A stretch of DNA of 64,000 nt from Myxococcota bacterium (GTDB lineage: Bacteria; Myxococcota_A; UBA796; GCA-2862545): positions 1 through 64,000 of the forward strand of contig JBCCQY010000020.1 of assembly GCA_039208735.1 (NCBI GenBank). Reading direction: 5' to 3'. Shown piece after piece: positions 14,085 to 26,246 of the stretch. The notes under the pieces are model-generated. The model had not been told where the DNA came from. It was given only the letters and a program-made list of their open reading frames with translations, and searched no databases. The position numbers and the translations under genes are program-made. The first letter of the stretch is position 1. Each line of letters begins with the position of its first letter.

Positions 14085-14195
14085 CGTCGCGGTTCGGTGC
14101 CTCTACCATCGCAAAGCTTATCGATATATAGGTTTGGGTGTTTACCTCTTCGAGCTGCATGCGCTGGCTGGAGGAGCGTCCACAAGGAGGTTGCG

Positions 14196-17000
14196 ATGGA
14201 TTCGTTGCGTACGACTCGTCGGCAAGGGGGTCAACCGATGACTCTGACTGCGCTCACGGCACTGTTGGGCTGCCTGCTGGGGCCAGTGGGGGCGCAGGCC
14301 CAGACCTACCGCACGGACGTGGAGTTGGGGAATCCGGTTGAGGTCACGGCCGGCGACGTGACCCTGCGGGTCGACGCGGGCTCCTGGGTGGGGTGGGCCA
14401 CCTACGACATTCACTACTTTCGGGCCACCTGCACGGAGGGAAACCAGGACTGCTCGGATAAGGTGGATTGGTCGACGACCTACGGGCACTTCGAGCACGT
14501 GAGGACCGCCGCAAACGATGGCCTTGAACTCACCGAGCTTCGGGTCTACTCGCCAGTCTACCGTCCACAGAACCGGTTCAATCGGTCCGTCGTCATGTGG
14601 TCCTCGGATTTGGACGCACGCAGAGATCGTCAGGCGGTAAAGAACAACCCCACCACGGGAGTGCTGACGCTGTCGTATCGGGGTGTATCGATCGAGGTAC
14701 CGCTTACGGCGTACTCGATCCTCGATGAAGACAATCCGCTTCCGGTCGCTTGGAATCAACCGGCGAACTTGAAGACGCTCTTCGGCGTGGGCTTCGGGGA
14801 CCCGGGTTCCGATAGCTACCTGGGATTGACCGAATTCATCCAGGGCGACTACCTGAATGACTTGACCTACCAGCAGGGCCAACTGCAGGCCATGAAGTCC
14901 GTGTCAGACCGATTGAAGGCCGAGATTATTGCTTGGCATCAGGGAAATCAAGAGCCCTACATCCTTCCCGAAAGCGTCTTTGACTACACCAAGCCGGCCA
15001 CCGCCCGCCCCTCGTTCACCTCACGCTCGTTGTCGGGGCCGCGCCAACGGTGGAAACTCGTCCGTTGGACGGACGTGGATGCCGAATCGATGGCTCGGGC
15101 GCTTGAGACGCGTCCCGCCGACCCCTATGAGAACGTGCGCCAAGTGGGGGGACGCGGTCTCTTCCCCGACGCGAATGCGACCTACATTCGCTACAATTAT
15201 GTCGCGCCGTTCGACTCGACCCTGATTATCAAGGGCCAGTTCCCACACGCGCGATTCATGAGTTTCGAGAATAGCCAGCCCCCCATTCCCTCGCAGCCCA
15301 CGGGAACTGCGGGCTCCGGTGGACCGGAGGTGCCGATTACCGACGCGGACATTTTGCCCGACCCTGGAAGCATCAACCCGTTTGTGGCGGGTGCAGACCG
15401 GACGGCCACCCAGCGCGACTACACCGTCGCGTTCCACCATCCGCTGACGATGATCACGGATGCCAGCGGTAATCTCGTGGATGATCCACGAAAGGGCATC
15501 GATCTGAACGAGCAAAACTGCCCGGGTTCGTTTCAGGAGAGCCGTCCGGCGTATCGGTGCCACGAGCCTGCCCTTTTCATGCCGGGGATTCCGCGGTCGA
15601 ACGTGCGCATTGCAGGGAACATGCGTACGGGAGGTGGCATGACGGATGGGGAGCTTCTTCCTGCTTAGTTGTGGCTCCGCTATTATGCGCCCGATGCACC
15701 TACTGGCGTCGTTAACTACGATCCCTACGGTGGCGTGGAGATTCCCATCGCCTACTTTGAGGCCACCTGGAACGGACAGACGTACCGTTGGGGGCTTGAG
15801 CTGGTTCGGGGGCCCGGTTCGGCCATCAATGCAGAGGATGACGGCGAACAACGGGACCGAATCGTGCGTTTTCTCTCGTCCCCGGTGTCACCCAACGATC
15901 CTCCTCTGACTGTGACGCCGGCTTCTGTTGGCGCGGGCAGTGCCGTTGGTTTCACGAAAGGCTTTCACATTCCGCGGGCGTTCGCGGTGGCGGCGGCGAA
16001 GGTTGCCGAAGCTCAGGGGGGCTTGCTCGCCTTGCTTCTGACCGACGAGAGCCTGCGAACCATCGACGCGAAGGCTTTCGGCAAGGGGTACGCGAAGCTC
16101 AACGGAAAGAAGAAGTTGGGGGGAAATGCGACCGGAGGGGTGTTGCCCGTGGCAGGGCCCGGAACGTACGAGTCGCACTCGACGGCCTCGAATTCGATCC
16201 ACTACACGGGCCGTACAATGGCGGTGGAGCAAGGCTACGTGGTCGTCGTGACGGGTCGAGCCCCGACCACGCCGACGACCCTAGGCGGTGATGCGACCAT
16301 GGGGGCGGGCACTGACATGCGCTACTGGTCGTTCACGCACTACTGCACAGGCCCTGTGCTGGACGATGCCACCACCATCTTGCGGACGTCACCCTTCAGC
16401 GGGTTGAACTGTGGCTCGTTGCAAGACGAGCAAGTCACGACCGTGAGCCGAGGCGATGAGGAATGGTACGCCATCGTCTTGTCCCAGCCCGAGGATCGGC
16501 CGAGCCTGGCCACCAGGGGACGAGGATTCACCTGGCAAGATTGGGGCCCGACGCCCGTGCAGCCTACCGGCTTCCGATGGATGGCGATTGGCGAGCGCCC
16601 GGGCGTAGACCAGCCTGGTGAGGCGTGGGCGAATTACGGCACGCTCGGTGACACAGTGGCCAACAGTAGCGTGATTGTGCCAGACATTGAGAACCTTCCC
16701 TTCGTCACCTCATTTGGCGAGGGCAGCTGTGGCAATGATTGGCGGGAATTGTGCGCGAAAAGCGCCGATCCTTTGGCACCGCGTGGGTATCAGGACCTCG
16801 ACACCAGCTGGAGCGCCCGCACGCGGACCGATGAAAATGATGCGTTCACCTTTATCGGCAAGAATGAGCGCACGGAGTCCGTAATGAAGGACTACCATCC
16901 CGAGTATCACTATCTGACGAAAGAGCAGTTTGATGCTTTATCGTCTGCGGAGCGTCGTCCATGGGACTTTGGTGGTGGACAGTATAAGACGGGGTGGTAA
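14196..17000 (+). pseudogene. large secreted hypothetical protein interrupted by a single in-frame TAG (15666-15668)
   Basis: ORFs ending at 15668 and starting at 15669 abut in the same frame (GELLPA*LWLRYYAPD); RBS and signal peptide only on the first part. Confidence 0.7.
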
Positions 17001-17033
17001 CCAGCTTGCCGTCGCTGAGCGACGGCAAGCTGG
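17001..17033. repeat. perfect 16-bp inverted repeat immediately after the stop codon
   Basis: CCAGCTTGCCGTCGCT-G-AGCGACGGCAAGCTGG. Confidence 0.9.
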
Positions 17034-17339
17034 CCCGCGTAGGCCTGCAGGCGCAGAGCGCCGAAGGCCAGCGGGTGTCCGTCCTTTGCACACCTTTGGT
17101 GCGGAGCGACGGCAAGCTGGCCCGCGTAGGCCTGCAGGCGCAGAGCGCCGAAGGCCAGCGGGTGTCCGTCCTTTGCACACCTTTGGTGCGGAGCGACGGC
17201 AAGCTGGCCCGCGTAGGTCTGCCGGCGCAGAGCGCCGAAGGCCAGCGGGTGTCCGTCCTTTGCACACCTTTGGTGCAGAGCGACGGCAAGCTGGCCCACG
17301 AGGTCTGCCGGCGCAGAGCGCCGGAGGCCAGCGGGTGTC
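17017..17339. repeat. tandem array of an 87-bp structured unit (about 3.7 copies)
   Basis: GAGCGACGGCAAGCTGG recurs at 17017, 17104, 17191 and 17278; the intervening sequence is nearly identical. Confidence 0.95.
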
Positions 17340-18334: not shown

Positions 18335-19303
18335 TTAAGGCCTTGACCGGAGCCACGTGATGGTGTCCCGCAACGTGGTGTCCCCATCGGGCGGGCTCCA
18401 CCCTAGGCGATCGGCGAAGCGCGTCCGAAGACCCCACCAGTGGCGTCCCATTTCAACGAGCACGGGATCGGGAATCCCGATGGGCAGCGCCAATCGGCGC
18501 TGGACCCGGGCGGCGGTGTGCACGACACGCCAGGGCAAGACCCATTGGGGGGCTCGAACCCCGCCGATGCGAGCGATGCGATCGGCGAACTCCCGAAGCG
18601 AACAGGCCGTCCCCGGGAGGTGAACGACCGGGGGTGGAGCGGGGTCTGAGGCCAGGGTGACGAGGGCCTCCGCTGCCGCCCGGACGTCGACCCAGTGCAC
18701 GCCACCTTCCACCAGGGCCGGAAGTCGTCCGTCCAAGATTCGGGTCACGTGGCGAGCGGAGCGGCCCGTCGGATCGTCGGGCCCCAGCAGAATCGGGGGT
18801 CGAACGATGATCAAGGGCACGCCAAGCTCGTCGGCCCGAGCGCGCGCCTGCCGTTCGGCCCTCACCTTCGACGCATAGTAGGGCCAATGCTGGACGCGGT
18901 GCCAGACGTAGGGGCTTTGTTCATCCGCCCAACCGTCGGGGTCGTCGAACACCCCGACCGTGCCCGAGGTGCTCACGAACACGACCCGCGCTCCGAGACG
19001 CGCCGCAAGTTCGACGATGGCTACCGTGCCGTCGACGTTCACGCGGTGGGTTTCCTGGGCCTGGCCTCGGGAATGGTCGACCTTGGCGGCAAGATGCAGG
19101 ATGGTGTCCACGCCATCGAGCTTGGGATGCCCGGCCCAGGCTTGTGGACGCTCGATCGCGCCCGGAATCTGAAACACGCCGTCTACAGGTTCCGGACGAC
19201 GGCACAATCCCACGAGCTGGGTGTCCGGAACGCGTCGTTGCAACGCCCGGACCGTGTGTCGACCAAGCAATCCGGTGACGCCGGTGATCAACACTCGGTT
19301 CAT
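18335..19303 (-). CDS. extended SDR (NAD-dependent epimerase/dehydratase, DFR-like)
   Basis: ITGVTGLLG, HLAA, VSTS, YYASK, RPPILLGP; ATG 19303 overlaps the upstream TGA. Confidence 0.9.
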   Translation of the reverse strand: MNRVLITGVTGLLGRHTVRALQRRVPDTQLVGLCRRPEPVDGVFQIPGAIERPQAWAGHPKLDGVDTILHLAAKVDHSRGQAQETHRVNVDGTVAIVELAARLGARVVFVSTSGTVGVFDDPDGWADEQSPYVWHRVQHWPYYASKVRAERQARARADELGVPLIIVRPPILLGPDDPTGRSARHVTRILDGRLPALVEGGVHWVDVRAAAEALVTLASDPAPPPVVHLPGTACSLREFADRIARIGGVRAPQWVLPWRVVHTAARVQRRLALPIGIPDPVLVEMGRHWWGLRTRFADRLGWSPPDGDTTLRDTITWLRSRP

Positions 19304-21843
19304 TTGGCGGCATCTTCCGGAGAGAACATCGATACGCTCGCTCGATCCGCCTTGGGATGAAGGACCCCGTCGCGTTGCTCGAGATTGCCACGGGCGATCA
19401 TCCAATCGATGGCGGCGTTGACTTCGTCGGGCCAAGCATTGCTGGCGAGCCGCACCACGTTTTGGCGTTCGATGGGTCCCTGCATGACGATGGCTTCGGT
19501 CTGGCTCCAGTCGTCGACCACGGAGCGTGCGAGGGCTCGTGCGGCTTCGCGCATGGTGGGATCGACATCGATGGGAGCGTTGGTGGACGCACTGAACGAC
19601 GTGCGACGTAGATGATCCGCAATGGCCGGATGAGAGTCCGCCATCGCAGCAAGTTCACGCGCCGCGTGGTGCTGCCAATGGGGCCGCATCCAGCGCTCCT
19701 CGGCGTCGCTGACGGTCGCGGTGGTGGAGGATTCCAGCACATGCGCGCCGCGGGCTTCGAGACTTCGGCGAAGCGCCGCCGCAGAGACCCCTGACCGCTT
19801 CTCGAACGCGTCGAGGTGGTAGGTCGTGGTGACCATAGCTTGTTGCTGGCGTTCTTGGGTTTGGGCCACGACCTCGGCCACGTCCGACTCGACGTCGAGT
19901 CGCAGTGGCTCCCCGGCGGCAAGGTGCATGCGGCCTAGATCGACGTCGCCGCGGTAGGCCTTTTTGAGCCAGCCGCCCAACCCCTGCAGCGTCATGGCTT
20001 CCTTGTCTCCACCACGCAATTCCTGTAGCAGCGGTCCCGCGTCGGGAATGCGGTCGTACGAAAGGGCAAGCGGCAGCACCATGAACGGCTCCCGCGTGGC
20101 CTGGAGGCTTCGCAAGACCCCACGACGAGCCTTTAGGAAAGCCCCACTGCGGCTGCGTTGTCCTTCGATGAAGACCTGAATGACCGGGTTGCGGGCCACC
20201 TGCTCGGCAATCATCCGGGTGAGGTTGGCGTCGGCCGCACCCTGACCGCGGTGGAGATAGAACGCCCCCATGTTGGCAAACGCCGTTCCCAAAATGGGAA
20301 TGCGGGAGAATGCAGCCGCCGCTGCGATGGCGGGCAGCGGCAGATGGACTTCGGGCAGCGCGTGCAAGGCGTAGCTGATGAGGAGAAAGTCGACGTAGCT
20401 TCTATGATTGGGGCAAATCAGGATGTTGCTTTCGGGCGGAATGGCTTCGATCGCGGCTTCAAGGCTGTCCACATCGACGGTGGCTTGTTCCACGCATTGA
20501 CGTGCCGTCGTCCGCAGGAGCAGCCCGAATCCCCGTTGCAGTGTCGATGCAGCCCCAGGACGCAGGGCCCATCGGGCGTCGGACCCCGAGCTGCGGCGTC
20601 CGGCAATCGGAACGGCACGGCTGTTTCCCCGCAGGAGGTGTTCGTGAACCCCTGCCGCCACTTGATCGAGGTAGACCTGTCGGTCGAAGTCGGGAGGCAG
20701 CACACCGCCCTCGAAGTGCCACGACTCCGACATGAAGGTCCGGAAGGTCTCGTCGAGGCCCCGAACGCGTTGCCGAGCCCGCATCGCTCGCCTTGCCCGG
20801 CCCGATTGACCTGACAACCGGGCAAGCCCCTCCTCGTAGTAGAGCGGCGCTTGCTGGAAGATGTGTCGAACGACGCCGCGTGACAGGCCCGCAGGGAGTG
20901 CGACGAGCTTCGGGGTGGAGCGAACGGGCCGGTTGCGAAGACGACGAATCGTCCACTGCTGGTGTTCTTCGATGCTTGGGCTGTTGGCCGGGCCCGCGAC
21001 CACCTGAACGATGCGATCGGGCGTATCGAGCGCGGCCACGACCTGTTCCGCCACGATGTCGACCGGGATCAGATCGAGCCTCGTGGCTGGGGAACCCTCG
21101 AGCACCCGGTACAGGCCCGCACCGATCGCCGCGACCATTCCAGCGTGGGCGGCCGCGCTGTCGACCCAACCAGGGATGGGCCAGCGCCACGCCACACTCA
21201 CGATGCTGGGACGGACGAGCACCAGCGCGGCATGTTGCTGCCGCTCGTCCAACCGATGTTCCGCCAGGCACTTCGTGAGGGTGTAGGAGTTTGGATGCCC
21301 GGTCTTTGCCGATGCGGCTTTCGCGTCGACGCGCGCTTCCTCACAGAGCGCCTTGGCGGAAGCGGGAAGCGCCACCAACTCTGGTCCATGCCGTTCCGTC
21401 AGCGGCGGGTGGACGTAGGCGGTCGACACACTGACGAGCCGTTCCGCGCGTGCCGCCTCTGCGAGATCTTGAACCCGCAAGGCACCGTCGACGTTGATGG
21501 CCATCGCTTGGTCGCCCGGGAGGTCGAAGCGCACCGAGGCCGCGAGGTGAACCACATGCGTGACGTCTCGCTCAAGGGCTCGTCGAAGGTCAGGCGGAAT
21601 GGCGAGGTCCGAGGCGCGCAAGTCTCCAGGGACGGCGTGCACACGTTCGCGACGCTCTCGGGGGAGATCTCGAAGGGGCAACGTGCGAAGCAGCCGCTCG
21701 ATGCGCGACTGGGCCCGCGCTGGCTGGTCGGCGGGCCGGACGAGGGCGTACACCCGACTTACCGAGTCATCTTCAAGCAGCCTACGGAGCACCAGCTTGC
21801 CGATGAAGCCGGTGGCTCCGGTCAAAAACACGACGCGTTTCAT
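19300..21843 (-). CDS. fatty acyl-CoA reductase - DHAP/G3P acyltransferase fusion (FARAT-like)
   Basis: FAR: TGATGFIGK, HLAASVRFD, PNSYTLTKCLAE, VRPSIV...PGWVD, DLIPVD; acyltransferase: PNHRSYVDFLL, GAFYLHR, FIEGQRSRSG, PLALSYDRI. Confidence 0.92.
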   Translation of the reverse strand: MKRVVFLTGATGFIGKLVLRRLLEDDSVSRVYALVRPADQPARAQSRIERLLRTLPLRDLPRERRERVHAVPGDLRASDLAIPPDLRRALERDVTHVVHLAASVRFDLPGDQAMAINVDGALRVQDLAEAARAERLVSVSTAYVHPPLTERHGPELVALPASAKALCEEARVDAKAASAKTGHPNSYTLTKCLAEHRLDERQQHAALVLVRPSIVSVAWRWPIPGWVDSAAAHAGMVAAIGAGLYRVLEGSPATRLDLIPVDIVAEQVVAALDTPDRIVQVVAGPANSPSIEEHQQWTIRRLRNRPVRSTPKLVALPAGLSRGVVRHIFQQAPLYYEEGLARLSGQSGRARRAMRARQRVRGLDETFRTFMSESWHFEGGVLPPDFDRQVYLDQVAAGVHEHLLRGNSRAVPIAGRRSSGSDARWALRPGAASTLQRGFGLLLRTTARQCVEQATVDVDSLEAAIEAIPPESNILICPNHRSYVDFLLISYALHALPEVHLPLPAIAAAAAFSRIPILGTAFANMGAFYLHRGQGAADANLTRMIAEQVARNPVIQVFIEGQRSRSGAFLKARRGVLRSLQATREPFMVLPLALSYDRIPDAGPLLQELRGGDKEAMTLQGLGGWLKKAYRGDVDLGRMHLAAGEPLRLDVESDVAEVVAQTQERQQQAMVTTTYHLDAFEKRSGVSAAALRRSLEARGAHVLESSTTATVSDAEERWMRPHWQHHAARELAAMADSHPAIADHLRRTSFSASTNAPIDVDPTMREAARALARSVVDDWSQTEAIVMQGPIERQNVVRLASNAWPDEVNAAIDWMIARGNLEQRDGVLHPKADRASVSMFSPEDAAK

Positions 21844-23702
21844 GAGCGCTCACTCAACCCTTGGTTTCCAACACCGAAGATGTCGTGTGGGTCGACAGCC
21901 TGCTTCAATTTGCGGCGCAGGGTCGTGCGCCCGTCGTCCTCTGCGCGATGGAGCCACGGGGTCCGCGTCTGACCGATTCCATGATGGTGGGAAACCGCGG
22001 CTCCATGGGTCAGCATGGCTTCTCGCGCGGCCCCTTCGAGGGCATGCCAGGCGGCGGACGGATCCTCGACCTGCTTGTAGACGAAGCCCACGTAGAAGTA
22101 CGTGCACACGCCTTCTGGGTAGATTTGGGAGATTCGCGAGGTCACGAAAGGGCGCCCCGGGAGCCCCAGTTCGGCATGCCGATCGCGAATGGCCTGCTTG
22201 ACGGCGGCGATCATGGGCATCGCGTTGCGCCAGCTCACCGAGGTTTCGAACGACTCGCCCCACACCCAGTGCTCGAGCATGTAGTCGCGGATGTAGGCGA
22301 TGGCGAAGGTCAGTCGATAGCCATCGGCCCCTCGGCTGCTACCTCCGTCGATGCCGCCAAACTGTTCGGCGATCGCTCGGACCGTCTTTTGCTGACGTTC
22401 AACCAGTTCTTGCGAACCCTCGTAGACCACCGTTGCGGCGGACACCTCGGAAAGGTCGAAGCCGTGCCACCGCTGCAGGACTTGTTGTTGGAGCCACTTG
22501 AGGGGAAGGTCGCGTCGCCGAGGGGCCGGTTTTAGGGCCTGGGCGAAGGCCAGCTGGTCGTTGTCGACAAGGCGAACGCTCGCCGGAACATCGCCGTGTT
22601 GCGTCAAGGCGTACAGAAAGCCAACCCCGGCCGCGAAGTCAGGGAACGCGATGGATCCGTAGCGCTGGACCTCCGGCAATCGGTGCAACCGGACCTTCGC
22701 CTCGGTGATCACGCCCAACGTGCCTTCAGAGCCGAACCAGAGGGTCTCGGGGTCGATCCCATGCGACGTTCGGGGTACCCCGGTGAAGGCGCCGACCTCG
22801 CCCGCTGCAGTCACGCCATCGGCTTGGAGCACGACCTGCTCGATGTTGCCGTAACGATTGCGCTTCATGCCACTCGCCCGCGTCGCGACCCAACCGCCCA
22901 GCGTCGAGAACTCGATGCTGTCGGGCTCGTGGCCTAGCGTAAAGCCGTGTTCGGCGAGCTGTTCGGCGATGACGCGTCCCACCGCTCCCGCTTGGATGCA
23001 GGCCACCGCGTCGACCGGATCGATCCATCGAACCCGGCTCATCCGTGCAAGATCGATCGAGATGATGATCCGAGACTCGACGTCGTGGCACTGCAACGCA
23101 CCGGTCACGCTCGTTCCCCCGCCGAAGGGGATGCACGTGGCTTCGTGGTGGGCGGCCGTGCGAACGATCGCGGCGACCTCCTCCGTCGACTCGGGCATCA
23201 CCACGATGTCGGGGGCTCGGGCCAGTCGACCGTAGTTGACGGTGTAGATCTCGGATGCCGTGTGGCCGTGACCATGTCGGACGCGGGTTGGGCCATCCGT
23301 GAACATCCGGTCGCCTACGATCTGCTCAAGAGCTCGTTCTAGCGCCGGATCCGACCGACGCTCTGGAGCGTGAGGCTCGGCAAGGGGGACGTGGCGGTCT
23401 TCGGCGGACAGCTCGAAGCCAAGCACGTCGCGAGCAAACTTGGTCAGGGCGGGCAGCGCCACCCCACACAGCGGATACCGATTGCCTTGCAGACGCGGGG
23501 CGCCAGAACGATCCCAGACGAACCGCGTGTCGTCGAAACCCCAACGCCGGGCCGCGGGGGCATCCGCACGAGGAATCGCGGTGGGCGGCGGGTAGATCCG
23601 GTGGGCGCCAAGGGTCTCGGCCACGGTGGAGGTGAATGTGCGTCCGAGCCACTGCCGAAAGCGGCTTCGAAAAGAGGGTTTCGTTGGTGTGGGACGGACC
23701 AC
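21840..23702 (-). CDS. agps: alkyldihydroxyacetonephosphate synthase (AGPS), FAD-dependent
   Basis: PFGGGTSV, GHEPDSIEFSTLGGWVATRASGMKRNRYGNIE, GSEGTLGVITEA, LTFAIAYIRD, ESFETS, SHHHGIG; GGAGG RBS before GTG 23702. Confidence 0.93.
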   Translation of the reverse strand: MVRPTPTKPSFRSRFRQWLGRTFTSTVAETLGAHRIYPPPTAIPRADAPAARRWGFDDTRFVWDRSGAPRLQGNRYPLCGVALPALTKFARDVLGFELSAEDRHVPLAEPHAPERRSDPALERALEQIVGDRMFTDGPTRVRHGHGHTASEIYTVNYGRLARAPDIVVMPESTEEVAAIVRTAAHHEATCIPFGGGTSVTGALQCHDVESRIIISIDLARMSRVRWIDPVDAVACIQAGAVGRVIAEQLAEHGFTLGHEPDSIEFSTLGGWVATRASGMKRNRYGNIEQVVLQADGVTAAGEVGAFTGVPRTSHGIDPETLWFGSEGTLGVITEAKVRLHRLPEVQRYGSIAFPDFAAGVGFLYALTQHGDVPASVRLVDNDQLAFAQALKPAPRRRDLPLKWLQQQVLQRWHGFDLSEVSAATVVYEGSQELVERQQKTVRAIAEQFGGIDGGSSRGADGYRLTFAIAYIRDYMLEHWVWGESFETSVSWRNAMPMIAAVKQAIRDRHAELGLPGRPFVTSRISQIYPEGVCTYFYVGFVYKQVEDPSAAWHALEGAAREAMLTHGAAVSHHHGIGQTRTPWLHRAEDDGRTTLRRKLKQAVDPHDIFGVGNQGLSERS

Positions 23703-23915
23703 GGGGCCTCCGAGAGCCAGGTCGATCGACCAAATCACGAGGGACCGTCATTACACGGCCAACGATGGGTTGTGCGAGCAACGAACGGGCGCACCACCGA
23801 AGATGCACCGATAAGGTGGACTTGTGGGAAAAAAAGAGAATCCGCCGCGGTCGTTCTAAATCGACATCAAAGTGCACCGCATGTCGGGCCAAGGACACTG
23901 GCCGATCGTCGAGCG

Positions 23916-24752
23916 TCAGCCCTCTGTTCCCTCGAACAAGGGGGTGAGTTCTCGAAGCGCACCGGCGAGATGCTGCAGGAGTGTGCGGACGCGCGCCGAA
24001 CGCCGCAGGTCGGCGTGGGTCAGCACCCACAGTGACGAGTTGGTCGCCGCGAGAGTCCCCGGGACGCGCTCGATCCCAGGTGTCCGATCCCCGACGAAGC
24101 AGGGGAGGATGCAGCGGCCGACCCCCGATGCGACGGCTCGGGCCTGCAGGGCGGCCGAGTCGAAGCGGGCCACGACGGGCACATCGTCTGGGGTGACGTC
24201 GAGACGCCTCATGAAACCAGACCACCCGATCCAGTGCGAAGGGCGGGTGCCGATCGCGACATACTGAGCGCCCCAGATCTCGCAGATTCTTCGCCCCACC
24301 GCGCTTCCTGGAGGACCGGGGCTGCCGCGAACCGAGAGATCGGCCTCATTGCGGTCGAGGTTCCGCACTTCGTTTGCTGCGAAGACCTCGAGTTCGATCC
24401 GCGGATGTTCGTTTATGAACGCTTGGAGAGGTTCGATCAGGCAATCGGCGAGGACATCGGCCGTGGCGATCCGCACGGTACCTTCGAGTTCAAGGTCCTC
24501 TCCGGACGCTCGACGGGAGAGCAAGGCGACTTCGGCCTCCACACGCTCGGCGTGGAGTCGCACCGCCTCGGCGGCCTCAGACTGGACGAGGCCCCGAGCG
24601 CTCCGGACGAACAGCGGGGTGCCGAGTTCGTCCTCGAGGGCGCGGATGCGACGGCTTACCGTCGACTGGTTGACACCAAGGTCGGCGGCGGCCGAGGTCA
24701 ACGAACCAGCTCTCACCGCAGCCAGAAAGTAGCGAATGTCGTCCCAGTCCAC
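23916..24752 (-). CDS. LysR-family transcriptional regulator
   Basis: MDWDDIRYFLA...GSLTSAA..LGVNQSTVSRRIRALE HTH plus substrate-binding domain. Confidence 0.95.
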   Translation of the reverse strand: MDWDDIRYFLAAVRAGSLTSAAADLGVNQSTVSRRIRALEDELGTPLFVRSARGLVQSEAAEAVRLHAERVEAEVALLSRRASGEDLELEGTVRIATADVLADCLIEPLQAFINEHPRIELEVFAANEVRNLDRNEADLSVRGSPGPPGSAVGRRICEIWGAQYVAIGTRPSHWIGWSGFMRRLDVTPDDVPVVARFDSAALQARAVASGVGRCILPCFVGDRTPGIERVPGTLAATNSSLWVLTHADLRRSARVRTLLQHLAGALRELTPLFEGTEG

Positions 24753-24869
24753 TCAGGTCCCCAAGCCATGCGTGTATGCATGACTCTAATGCAAATTGGG
24801 TCGTGGATCCGCATCTGTGCATTGGTCATGAAGCTTCGGGAGCTCGAATGCTTCCGAGGAGGATTTCCG

Positions 24870-25826
24870 ATGAGTCGATTCATGCTTGTGTCGTTGACGC
24901 TGGCCCTAGGGGCATGCGCAAACGTCGCGTCCATTCCACTGCTCGGCAACGCCACATACCCCGAGGGCATTGCGGCTCACGCGCACACCCAAGAACTCTT
25001 CGTTGGGGGAGTGGCCAATGGCGATATCCAGCGCGTCGATGCCCAGGGAGAGGTCACCTTCTTCAAGGAGGCCCATGAGGATGGCTTGGCCAACGTGATT
25101 GGGCTGGCCGTCGACCCCGAACGGAACCGGCTGTTCGTGTGCTCGACTTCGTTCTTCGATCCAACCGTGGCACCTTCCCTCGTGGTATTCGATACGGTGA
25201 CGGGAGATCGTCTCGCATCGCTGTCTGCACCCGACGACGGTTTGCCGCACTTCTTCAACGATGTCGCCGTAGATAGCGCAGGTCGCGCCTACGTCACCGA
25301 CTCGTTTGCCCCCATTGTGTACACCGTGGGCGTCGAACTCGAGAGCCTCGACGTTCTCGCGACCGACCCCGCCTTCGTGCTCGACCCGCAGGGCTTCAAC
25401 CTCAACGGCATTGCCATCACGACGGACGACCGCTTCGCGATTGCTTCGGTGGCAACCCTGGCCGGAATCGGGCAGCTGTTTCGGATCGGCCTCGATGATG
25501 GCTCCGTGCAGCCGCTCTCCACGCCAGCATCGTTCTCTGGGGTGGATGGTCTTCTCACGCTAAACGCTCGTACGATGGTTGGAATCGGGGGAAGTTCTTC
25601 GGTCCAGCGCTTCGACTTCAACGACAACTTCGACACCGTCAACGTGACGAGCGTCCCTGAGGCCGACGAGTTCCTCGACTTTCCGACCACGGCAGCGCGG
25701 CTTGGCGCGCGGATTTTCGTCGTCAACAGCCAGTTGGACCATTTTGTGCCCGGCCAGCCAGCCTTCGGAACAGACCCGGAACTTCCGTTCGAAGTAGTTG
25801 GCTTTTCCAGCTGGTGGCTTCGTTAG
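24870..25826 (+). CDS. SMP-30/gluconolactonase-like beta-propeller lipoprotein
   Basis: Lipobox LGAC; YPEGIA, FFNDVAVD, NLNGIA, DGL, PTT...NSQ; divergent from the LysR gene. Confidence 0.85.
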   Translation: MSRFMLVSLTLALGACANVASIPLLGNATYPEGIAAHAHTQELFVGGVANGDIQRVDAQGEVTFFKEAHEDGLANVIGLAVDPERNRLFVCSTSFFDPTVAPSLVVFDTVTGDRLASLSAPDDGLPHFFNDVAVDSAGRAYVTDSFAPIVYTVGVELESLDVLATDPAFVLDPQGFNLNGIAITTDDRFAIASVATLAGIGQLFRIGLDDGSVQPLSTPASFSGVDGLLTLNARTMVGIGGSSSVQRFDFNDNFDTVNVTSVPEADEFLDFPTTAARLGARIFVVNSQLDHFVPGQPAFGTDPELPFEVVGFSSWWLR

Positions 25827-25922
25827 CGCTCGGAACGTTTCACAACCCTTGCAAACGGTTCCGAGGCAAAGAGGGGCGCGTTACCTCACTGACGAATCGA
25901 CAATAACGTCAAGAGAGGAACG

Positions 25923-26246
25923 ATGAAAACGGTATCCCTGGCTTGCTTTTTCGGACTATCCCTCGTCGCGTGCGGAGAACAGACCTTCGTTTGCGTAGAT
26001 TCCATTGAGCAAGGGGACGCCGATGGCCAGCTCGACGACTTTGTCGGACTCGAGGTTTGCTACGAGGTCGTAGGCACGCGGAGTGTGTGCACCGACGATG
26101 GTGGGAACGCGGTGGCCTACGACAACAATGAGCAAACCAGCGATGAAGCCTGCCTGGCGGAGGGCTTCCGCTTCCGGTGTGGCCAGGCCGCCGCGGTGGG
26201 CACCGCAGAGGGGTGTCCCGAAGGGTTCGACGTCGTAGAGCTGTGA
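25923..26246 (+). CDS. small Cys-containing lipoprotein
   Basis: GAGG RBS, lipobox LVAC, 6 further Cys. Confidence 0.75.
   Translation: MKTVSLACFFGLSLVACGEQTFVCVDSIEQGDADGQLDDFVGLEVCYEVVGTRSVCTDDGGNAVAYDNNEQTSDEACLAEGFRFRCGQAAAVGTAEGCPEGFDVVEL

Follow-up and report, generated by a model that had tools for sequence, protein, structure and literature searches.

Does a bacterium carry a true counterpart of FARAT, the protein in which a fatty acyl-CoA reductase (FAR) is joined to an acyltransferase (AT), described from Tetrahymena and Dictyostelium, and how is it related to the eukaryotic protein? The question is raised by an open reading frame (ORF) in the first 64,000 nucleotides (here called the window) of contig JBCCQY010000020.1 from a Myxococcota bacterium, assembly GCA_039208735.1. 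This FAR+AT ORF of 847 amino acids (aa) is real, its catalytic motifs are intact, and it lies in the middle of a three-gene operon with translational coupling, in the order AGPS, FARAT and NAD(P) reductase. Judged from its sequence, the operon very probably serves to build alkyl ether lipids by the dihydroxyacetone phosphate (DHAP) route and is orthologous to MXAN_1676-1675-1674 of Myxococcus xanthus. A sequence-only reading of the window had implied that a bacterial FARAT would be novel, but the same fusion in the same operon has been described for M. xanthus (MXAN_1675/plsB2). This gene arrangement has been in print since 2006, so a bacterial FARAT is known, and the present gene adds one more example of the myxobacterial operon. 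What is new here is that both domains are kin to the eukaryotic fusion, that the bacterial proteins carry derived deletions, that diatoms seem to have a one-chain version, and that plsB1 and plsY were not found in the source genome.

Pfam recognizes PF07993 at residues 7-267 (E = 1.5e-54) and PF01553 at residues 466-594 (E = 4.3e-19) of the fusion, and no match to an AMP-binding, acyl-CoA synthetase or acyl carrier protein (ACP) domain was obtained, as the sequence-only reading had said. The four AT motifs that it listed are also present, intact and in the order given: PNHRSYVDFLL (residue 478), GAFYLHR (526), FIEGQRSRSG (558) and SYDRI (595). They are preceded in the N-terminal half by the FAR motifs TGATGFIG (8), VSTAYV (139) and YTLTK (187). 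The search alignment consists of 46 full-length homologues, and because 43 of them keep all four catalytic motif patterns, the fusion is not a chance ORF. A contig from sequencing run X1, which may be the source sample itself, matched window positions 18447-25980 without any difference. In the independent study X2, contigs span much of the fusion ORF and show no listed indel within it; none of the listed pieces, however, extends across the entire FAR-AT junction. The FAR domain matches the fatty acyl-CoA reductase structure PDB 7eoz (E = 6e-21). Against the two PlsB equivalog models the fusion scores 86 bits (cut-off 610) and 77 bits (cut-off 618.5), both far short; it does not have the PlsB_N/GPAT_C architecture of PlsB and is placed outside the PlsB rows in the 63-row AT tree described below. 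Two Pfam domains of canonical FARAT, Sterile (PF03015) and GPAT_C (PF19277), went undetected in the 847-aa protein. Its C-terminal ~240 residues reach a feature score of 0.91 against GPAT_C clusters and a TM score of 0.76 over 235 residues against a PlsB cluster model, with predicted structures on both sides (Atlas model). This suggests that the region is a reduced GPAT_C-like homologue. The sequence-only reading had not mentioned that Sterile and GPAT_C go undetected, and it had missed the operon context, that is, the flanking AGPS and reductase genes.

In the operon, ATGA overlaps are found at both the AGPS/FARAT and the FARAT/reductase junction (Table 1). The AGPS gene product matches PDB 4bby (E = 4e-135) and 2uuu (8e-87), the next-best family following at 5e-24. 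It has the FAD-linked fold and keeps SHHHG, CTYFY, the aligned Arg and a Tyr whose place is taken by Phe in PDB 4bca. We take the His triad, the active-site Tyr and the Arg to be the catalytic residues, and 4bby and 2uuu are presumably the guinea pig and the Dictyostelium enzyme. Translation of AGPS probably starts at GTG 23702, behind GGAGG, giving 620 aa. The third gene, encoding an extended short-chain dehydrogenase/reductase (SDR), is a candidate acyl/alkyl-DHAP reductase; alkyl-DHAP reductases are of the SDR type (PMC13256971).

Table 1. Positions of the operon genes, the domains of the fusion and the upstream regulator in the window.
Feature	Position	Strand	Remark
Extended SDR/NAD-dependent epimerase-family reductase, 322 aa	18335..19303	-	start overlaps FARAT stop (ATGA)
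FARAT-type FAR+AT fusion, 847 aa, orthologue of the M. xanthus MXAN_1675 family	19300..21843	-	single unbroken ORF
Shortened GPAT_C-like C-terminal region, residues 610-847	19303..20016	-	below Pfam detection
AT core, residues ~436-650	19894..20538	-	H480-x4-D485, GAFYLHR, FIEGQRSR, LPLALSY
FAR domain, residues 1 to ~405	20629..21843	-	Rossmann TGATGFIG, S140, YxxxK 187-191, shortened Sterile-like C-terminal part
Alkyl-DHAP synthase (AGPS), 632 aa	21840..23738	-	stop overlaps FARAT start (ATGA)
LysR-type regulator	23916..24752	-	upstream, same strand, no match beside related operons

The domain content, motifs, coupling, synteny and tree positions are direct observations, and the activities, above all that of the third gene product, are predictions from them. 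The FAR domain would convert a long-chain acyl thioester with NADPH to a fatty alcohol, while the AT domain would acylate DHAP and perhaps also glycerol 3-phosphate (G3P). AGPS would then swap the acyl group for the fatty alcohol to give alkyl-DHAP, and the third enzyme would reduce the keto group to yield alkyl-G3P, which would feed ordinary phospholipid synthesis. CarF (PF10520) gave no match in the source genome; the search is able to detect CarF, because 1 of the 41 genomes searched matched. As CarF/PEDS1 was not matched, the product would be a plasmanyl rather than a plasmalogen lipid. With plsB1 and plsY missing from their syntenic loci as well (see below), the operon is likely to make alkyl ether lipids, and it may also start ester lipids.

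The closest known system is the M. xanthus operon, which consists of MXAN_1676 (AGPS), MXAN_1675 (FAR1-like plus GNPAT-like) and MXAN_1674 (epimerase family) (Padmanabhan 2022, PMC9131029). The same three genes stand in the same order here, with the middle gene between an AGPS and an epimerase-family gene. Like MXAN_1675, listed with 868 aa in a FAR table and numbered next to AGPS (PMC13012113), the 847-aa protein joins a FAR1-like N-terminal part to a GNPAT-like C-terminal AT, with PF07993 and PF01553 only and no acyl-CoA synthetase or ACP domain; the first 400 residues of the M. xanthus protein fit the family consensus in a comparison made by eye only. Cystobacter and other Myxococcota rows fall in the same starred clade of our trees, from which M. 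xanthus itself is absent. Some differences exist, as the 847-aa protein belongs to a divergent sub-lineage, and M. xanthus has ElbD and CarF (PMC9131029) as well as a separate GNPAT-table protein (PMC13012113), whereas no ElbD-type FAR, CarF, PlsB1 or PlsY was found in the source genome, which has a single strong FAR. The fusion resembles M. xanthus ElbD in uniting a FAR and an acyltransferase in one ether-lipid protein, but it is without the ACP and acyl-CoA synthetase domains, and its FAR lies in another clade than the sampled ElbD-length proteins, whose ElbD label follows from length and an N-terminal FAR.

Several points weigh against the proposed pathway. The role of the M. xanthus operon, noted by Curtis 2006, was suggested but not established, and disruption of MXAN_1676 lowered ether lipids only slightly (PMC9131029). 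The nearest solved relatives of the third gene product are generic carbonyl reductases and epimerases, and the reductase is not directly downstream in 7 of the 21 fused loci with enough flank. Sequence motifs do not tell DHAP from G3P acceptors, and GpsA is present, leaving G3P acylation possible. The source genome is 92.7% complete with 6.2% contamination.

Related operons were not found when genome contigs were scanned with the single sequence, but an alignment-based scan found loci labelled Myxococcota, Gemmatimonadota, Spirochaetota, Binatia, Bacteroidetes and others. Synteny was counted in the best 33 named loci (L016-L048) of the 80 kept, the other 47 being distant FAR matches. AGPS is directly upstream in 29 of the 33, an AT follows the FAR in 22 of 30 with enough flank, and a reductase follows in 14 of the 21 fused loci; one protein (P0133) has FAR, AT and reductase in a single chain. 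Pairs of a FAR and an acyltransferase can make wax esters, and some relatives keep AGPS and FAR with a degenerate AT, as would be expected if FAR and AT made wax esters or another neutral lipid and AGPS served for salvage. We regard this as very improbable. The AT belongs to the GPAT/GNPAT and not to the WS/DGAT family, and the frequent coupling to AGPS (29/33) fits a supply of both AGPS substrates. In three Spirochaetaceae-labelled loci (L026, L042 and L044), AGPS is followed by a FAR with an eroded AT half (620-690 aa), and P0047 is eroded likewise; possibly, these are a salvage version taking acyl-DHAP from elsewhere. A second type of cluster (FAR ... AGPS; L049, L051, L056 and L078, with Latescibacterota and Wenzhouxiangella labels) has a FAR on the ElbD side and an AGPS in a separate clade.

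The distribution of the family is patchy. It was matched in 33 of 301 genomes of the phylum (23 at full length) and in only 6 of 154 genomes of the order (2 at full length). Among 40 relatives no full-length orthologue was found, only distant AGPS-like genes. Judged by eye, the PlsB proteins of relatives resemble labelled rows of a supplement, which points to Myxococcota and probably to class UBA796 for the source genome. The sole other genome of the order found with a full fusion, G443, has one of the same sub-lineage with 49% identity; the Cystobacter operon protein (L018) is 37% identical over 816 columns. A metagenome scan gave one match of 54 residues. A distant AGPS-like paralogue with 28-35% identity (G000:C33:32939-34438, where G000 is the source genome) is common to the source genome and its congeners.

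To explain the fusion, the sequence-only reading offered an ancestral bacterial FARAT, a eukaryote-to-bacterium transfer or convergence, and it named separate domain trees as the check. Grouping with ElbD-type reductases and PlsB was not what these trees showed. In the FAR tree (50 rows, after removal of 18 of 68 that were fragments or redundant), the family joins the diatom proteins discussed below with 100/99* and the eukaryotic FAR/FARAT with 100/99*, and ElbD-length, FAR-HAD and other bacterial FARs fall outside. The AT trees (LG+C20, ~210 columns) comprised 58 rows, after removal of 16 of 74 that were long or redundant, or 63 rows, with 31 PlsB1-type rows and E. coli PlsB. Here the family and the diatom proteins group with 100/100*, and with canonical FARAT and animal GNPAT with 98/93* (58 rows) and 95/91* (63 rows). 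An approximately unbiased (AU) test on the 58-row tree weakly rejected (p = 0.033) a clade of canonical eukaryotes and the Myxococcales-labelled PlsB named below without the family, a group that was chosen after seeing the tree. Both domains separately go with eukaryotic FARAT/FAR/GNPAT, away from ElbD and PlsB. The fusion is therefore probably homologous to eukaryotic FARAT and of one origin with it, the bacterial family being a shortened derived sister. Compared profile to profile with 26 canonical FARATs, the family aligns colinearly over 845 columns (E = 3e-132), with FAR before AT in one chain and the catalytic motifs intact as in Tetrahymena TtFARAT and Dictyostelium FatA. A FARAT-like function is well supported by this grouping and by the AGPS gene overlapping the start codon, but the full canonical architecture (PF07993+PF03015+PF01553+PF19277, 1,100-1,400 aa) is absent; the 847-aa protein is 300-430 aa shorter. 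It also ends in EDAAK, without the SKL peroxisomal signal found at the C terminus of the Dictyostelium protein, whose function was given by Kappelt 2020 (PMC7375469). Two features of the trees count against the kinship: the AT clade sits on a long stem (~1.2), and the sampling is without mitochondrial GPAT and has few algal or plant FARs.

We consider it improbable that the fusion of related FAR and AT domains arose twice, once in bacteria and once in protists. Some family FAR genes stand alone and split forms are known, and the two parts are unfused in animals, so that the fusion state can change. In pairwise alignment with Dictyostelium FARAT, identity reaches only 28% in one segment and 31% in a second, separate one. 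Against this, independent joining would require that, for each of the two domains, the partner used was the sister of its eukaryotic counterpart. The linker motif D-x-x-W/F-A before the AT core is also common to both sides, occurring in 27 of 43 family members, 23 of 26 canonical FARATs and 8 of 20 GNPATs, versus 3 of 64 PlsB rows, there at another distance. From this motif to the catalytic His motif there are 56 residues in the family versus 113 in eukaryotes, with an alignment that is ambiguous across the deletion. The missing part is a helical segment of ~57 aa before the AT core that is common to PlsB, GNPAT and canonical FARAT, and because PlsB also has it, it was lost in the family. Such derived deletions make the family a sister lineage and not a living ancestor, a qualifier that the notion of an ancestral bacterial FARAT now needs; convergence has become the least likely of the three origins.

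Direction is a separate matter from homology. An early transfer of a canonical FARAT from a eukaryote, followed by shortening and sideways spread among bacteria, would account for the missing ~57-aa segment, the reduced GPAT_C and the patchy occurrence over many phyla. It is also in line with the search for a canonical-length FAR-AT fusion, of which none was found in 401 phylum genomes (two candidates scored per genome), where all 13 matches cover the PlsB part only. In both careful AT trees the family lies in an unresolved polytomy with the eukaryotes. We nevertheless think this transfer unlikely. In an AU test on the 58-row AT tree, canonical eukaryotes as a clade without the family were not rejected (p = 0.26), and in the FAR tree such a clade, made up of canonical FARAT and animal-type FAR, is recovered (90/96, not starred). 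The AT clade has as its nearest outgroup a PlsB labelled Myxococcales, with a close relative (100/99*, 63 rows). The AGPS tree, which has no animal or amoebozoan rows, contains a second bacterial AGPS lineage outside the operon clade.

Transfer from myxobacteria to eukaryotes was argued by Trinidad-Barnech 2026 (PNAS, PMC13012113), for whom MXAN_1675 was the motive to look for FARAT. The GNPAT phylogeny table of that paper holds no 'xanthus' row, and all 11 of its PF07993 rows are eukaryotic. Across 15 supplementary files, a set that does not cover the SI Appendix, the three M. xanthus fusion identifiers occur only in the FAR table. As far as these files go, the published argument for a myxobacterial origin of FARAT depends on a GNPAT tree from whose data the fusion family is missing. 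Adding the family gives a bacterial sister for both domains, so that direction and fusion history become testable. The parts available of a sponge preprint and of PMC9244630 contribute nothing regarding the fusion. Oomycetes (Phytophthora, Saprolegnia, Aphanomyces and Pythium) carry FARAT of canonical architecture; in the text of PMC13012113, ciliates are the sole Diaphoretickes with FARAT.

The closest eukaryotic relatives of the family, by sequence, are five-domain diatom proteins. A profile search gave 13 proteins of 1.5-2.7 thousand aa (P0237, P0239, P0266, P0253 and nine more), all with a family-type FAR and AT, and with a complete AGPS in 11, ACBP in 10 and a DegT-like domain in 9. The named ones are all from diatoms: Thalassiosira profunda (KAL9182467.1), Seminavis robusta (CAB9514315.1), Stephanodiscus triporus (KAL3775736.1) and Chaetoceros debilis (UniRef100_A0A7S3VH94, a transcriptome entry). 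They are known here as database entries only. YxxxK, HxxxxD and EGxRSR are kept in all 14 proteins checked and SHHHG in 12. They share a clade with the bacterial family in the FAR and AT trees, and their AGPS nests among the operon AGPS (99/95*). By score, the bacterial and diatom AGPS are far closer to PDB 4bby (432-586 bits) than to 2uuu (232-305 bits). A clade of all eukaryotes including diatoms was rejected for the AT (AU test, 58 rows, p = 3e-6). The 847-aa protein aligns with the Seminavis protein in one alignment of 248 bits, versus 114 and 103 bits with Dictyostelium, and the short spacing from linker motif to AT core is the same as in the family. Unlike the operon, the diatom version is one chain of 1.7-2.7 thousand aa with AGPS last, has extra ACBP and pyridoxal phosphate enzyme-like (DegT) domains, and has no separate epimerase-family reductase domain besides the FAR. 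The Atlas annotation of the DegT-like domain says DegT family only, and apart from one weak generic match no homologue of it or of the ACBP domain was found beside the bacterial operons or in the source genome.

These proteins are probably the result of a second transfer into eukaryotes. We lean, by a modest degree, towards the following overall reading: among bacteria this family stands nearest to eukaryotic FARAT in both domains and has passed into eukaryotes a second time, and diatoms, which were thought to be without the pathway, carry the operon fused into an ACBP-DegT-FAR-AT-AGPS enzyme of 2.2-2.7 thousand aa that would make alkyl-DHAP or a nitrogen-bearing derivative. In the present bacterium, the operon may also have displaced plsB1 and plsY. 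From the diatom protein one would expect a major phytoplankton group to have ether-lipid chemistry, with the AGPS pathway on one chain. No published description of it was found among titles and abstract beginnings, most subscription papers lying outside this coverage. The diatom names tried have no match in the AGPS and FAR tables of PMC13012113; Thalassiosira oceanica is in its PEDS1/FAD4 table. A cluster of 10 members (P0051) has a FAR-AT-AGPS(start) fusion of ~1,395 aa, is sister to the diatom proteins in the FAR tree and may be another algal group. A contig with 28% GC from a giant-virus metagenome-assembled genome in IMG/VR has a 701-aa gene (L155:3755-5860) with a family-like FAR and a degenerate AT without HxxxxD.

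Could the operon also have come to carry out the initial step of glycerophospholipid synthesis in general, with the AT acylating G3P, or DHAP followed by reduction, and with plsB1 and plsY lost? Curtis 2006 reportedly found that M. xanthus plsB2 supports the synthesis of ester phosphatidylethanolamine. MXAN_1675 carries that name, plsB2 (PMC4320627), and the enzymes concerned are common in relatives. A PlsB1-type gene is found in 140 of 151 phylum genomes and 19 of 19 sampled order genomes, GPAT_C in 4 of 4 congeners and PlsY in 35 of 41 genomes searched, with none of the three in the source genome. At the plsB1 locus (G000:C226:2801-4275), the position that plsB1 has in three congeners is occupied by a yaaA gene. 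At the plsY locus (G000:C130:15271-19138) there are unrelated genes instead, including a TadE-like pair (labelled by eye). The genes on either side of each locus sit within N-free contigs. On the other side, the source genome retains GpsA, two plsX and a 554-aa PlsB-like protein with HxxxxD (G000:C35:30018-32581), encoded directly upstream of a gpsA-like gene, with similar-sized matches in many relatives; its sequence makes it a candidate G3P acyltransferase. G443 has the fusion yet keeps plsB1 and plsY, FARAT-bearing genomes elsewhere in the phylum keep PlsB1, the congener G001 is also without plsY though it has no operon, and the assembly is incomplete. We therefore see the takeover as a tentative idea that is rather less probable than not. 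The stronger notion that FARAT is the only possible sn-1 acyltransferase is weakened by the C35 protein and by G443. A genome with the operon but apparently no ElbD, PlsB1 or PlsY would be a cleaner test of the role of the M. xanthus operon, which is masked there by ElbD.

Contamination or recent foreign DNA is unsupported, as the contig (C20) ranks 28 of 173 in tetranucleotide distance and the operon lies at the 34th percentile of 439 windows. The LysR-type regulator upstream has no match beside related operons. No sigma-70-like promoter was found at the operon, and terminator-like sites are no more frequent than chance. An 87-bp tandem repeat (3.7 copies, 97% matches) lies between two genes at window positions 17017-17339, and its higher summed contig depth suggests that it has further copies elsewhere. 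On the plus strand, at 14097-17000, two long ORFs of 523 and 443 aa abut with one stop codon between them and are possibly one split secreted protein.

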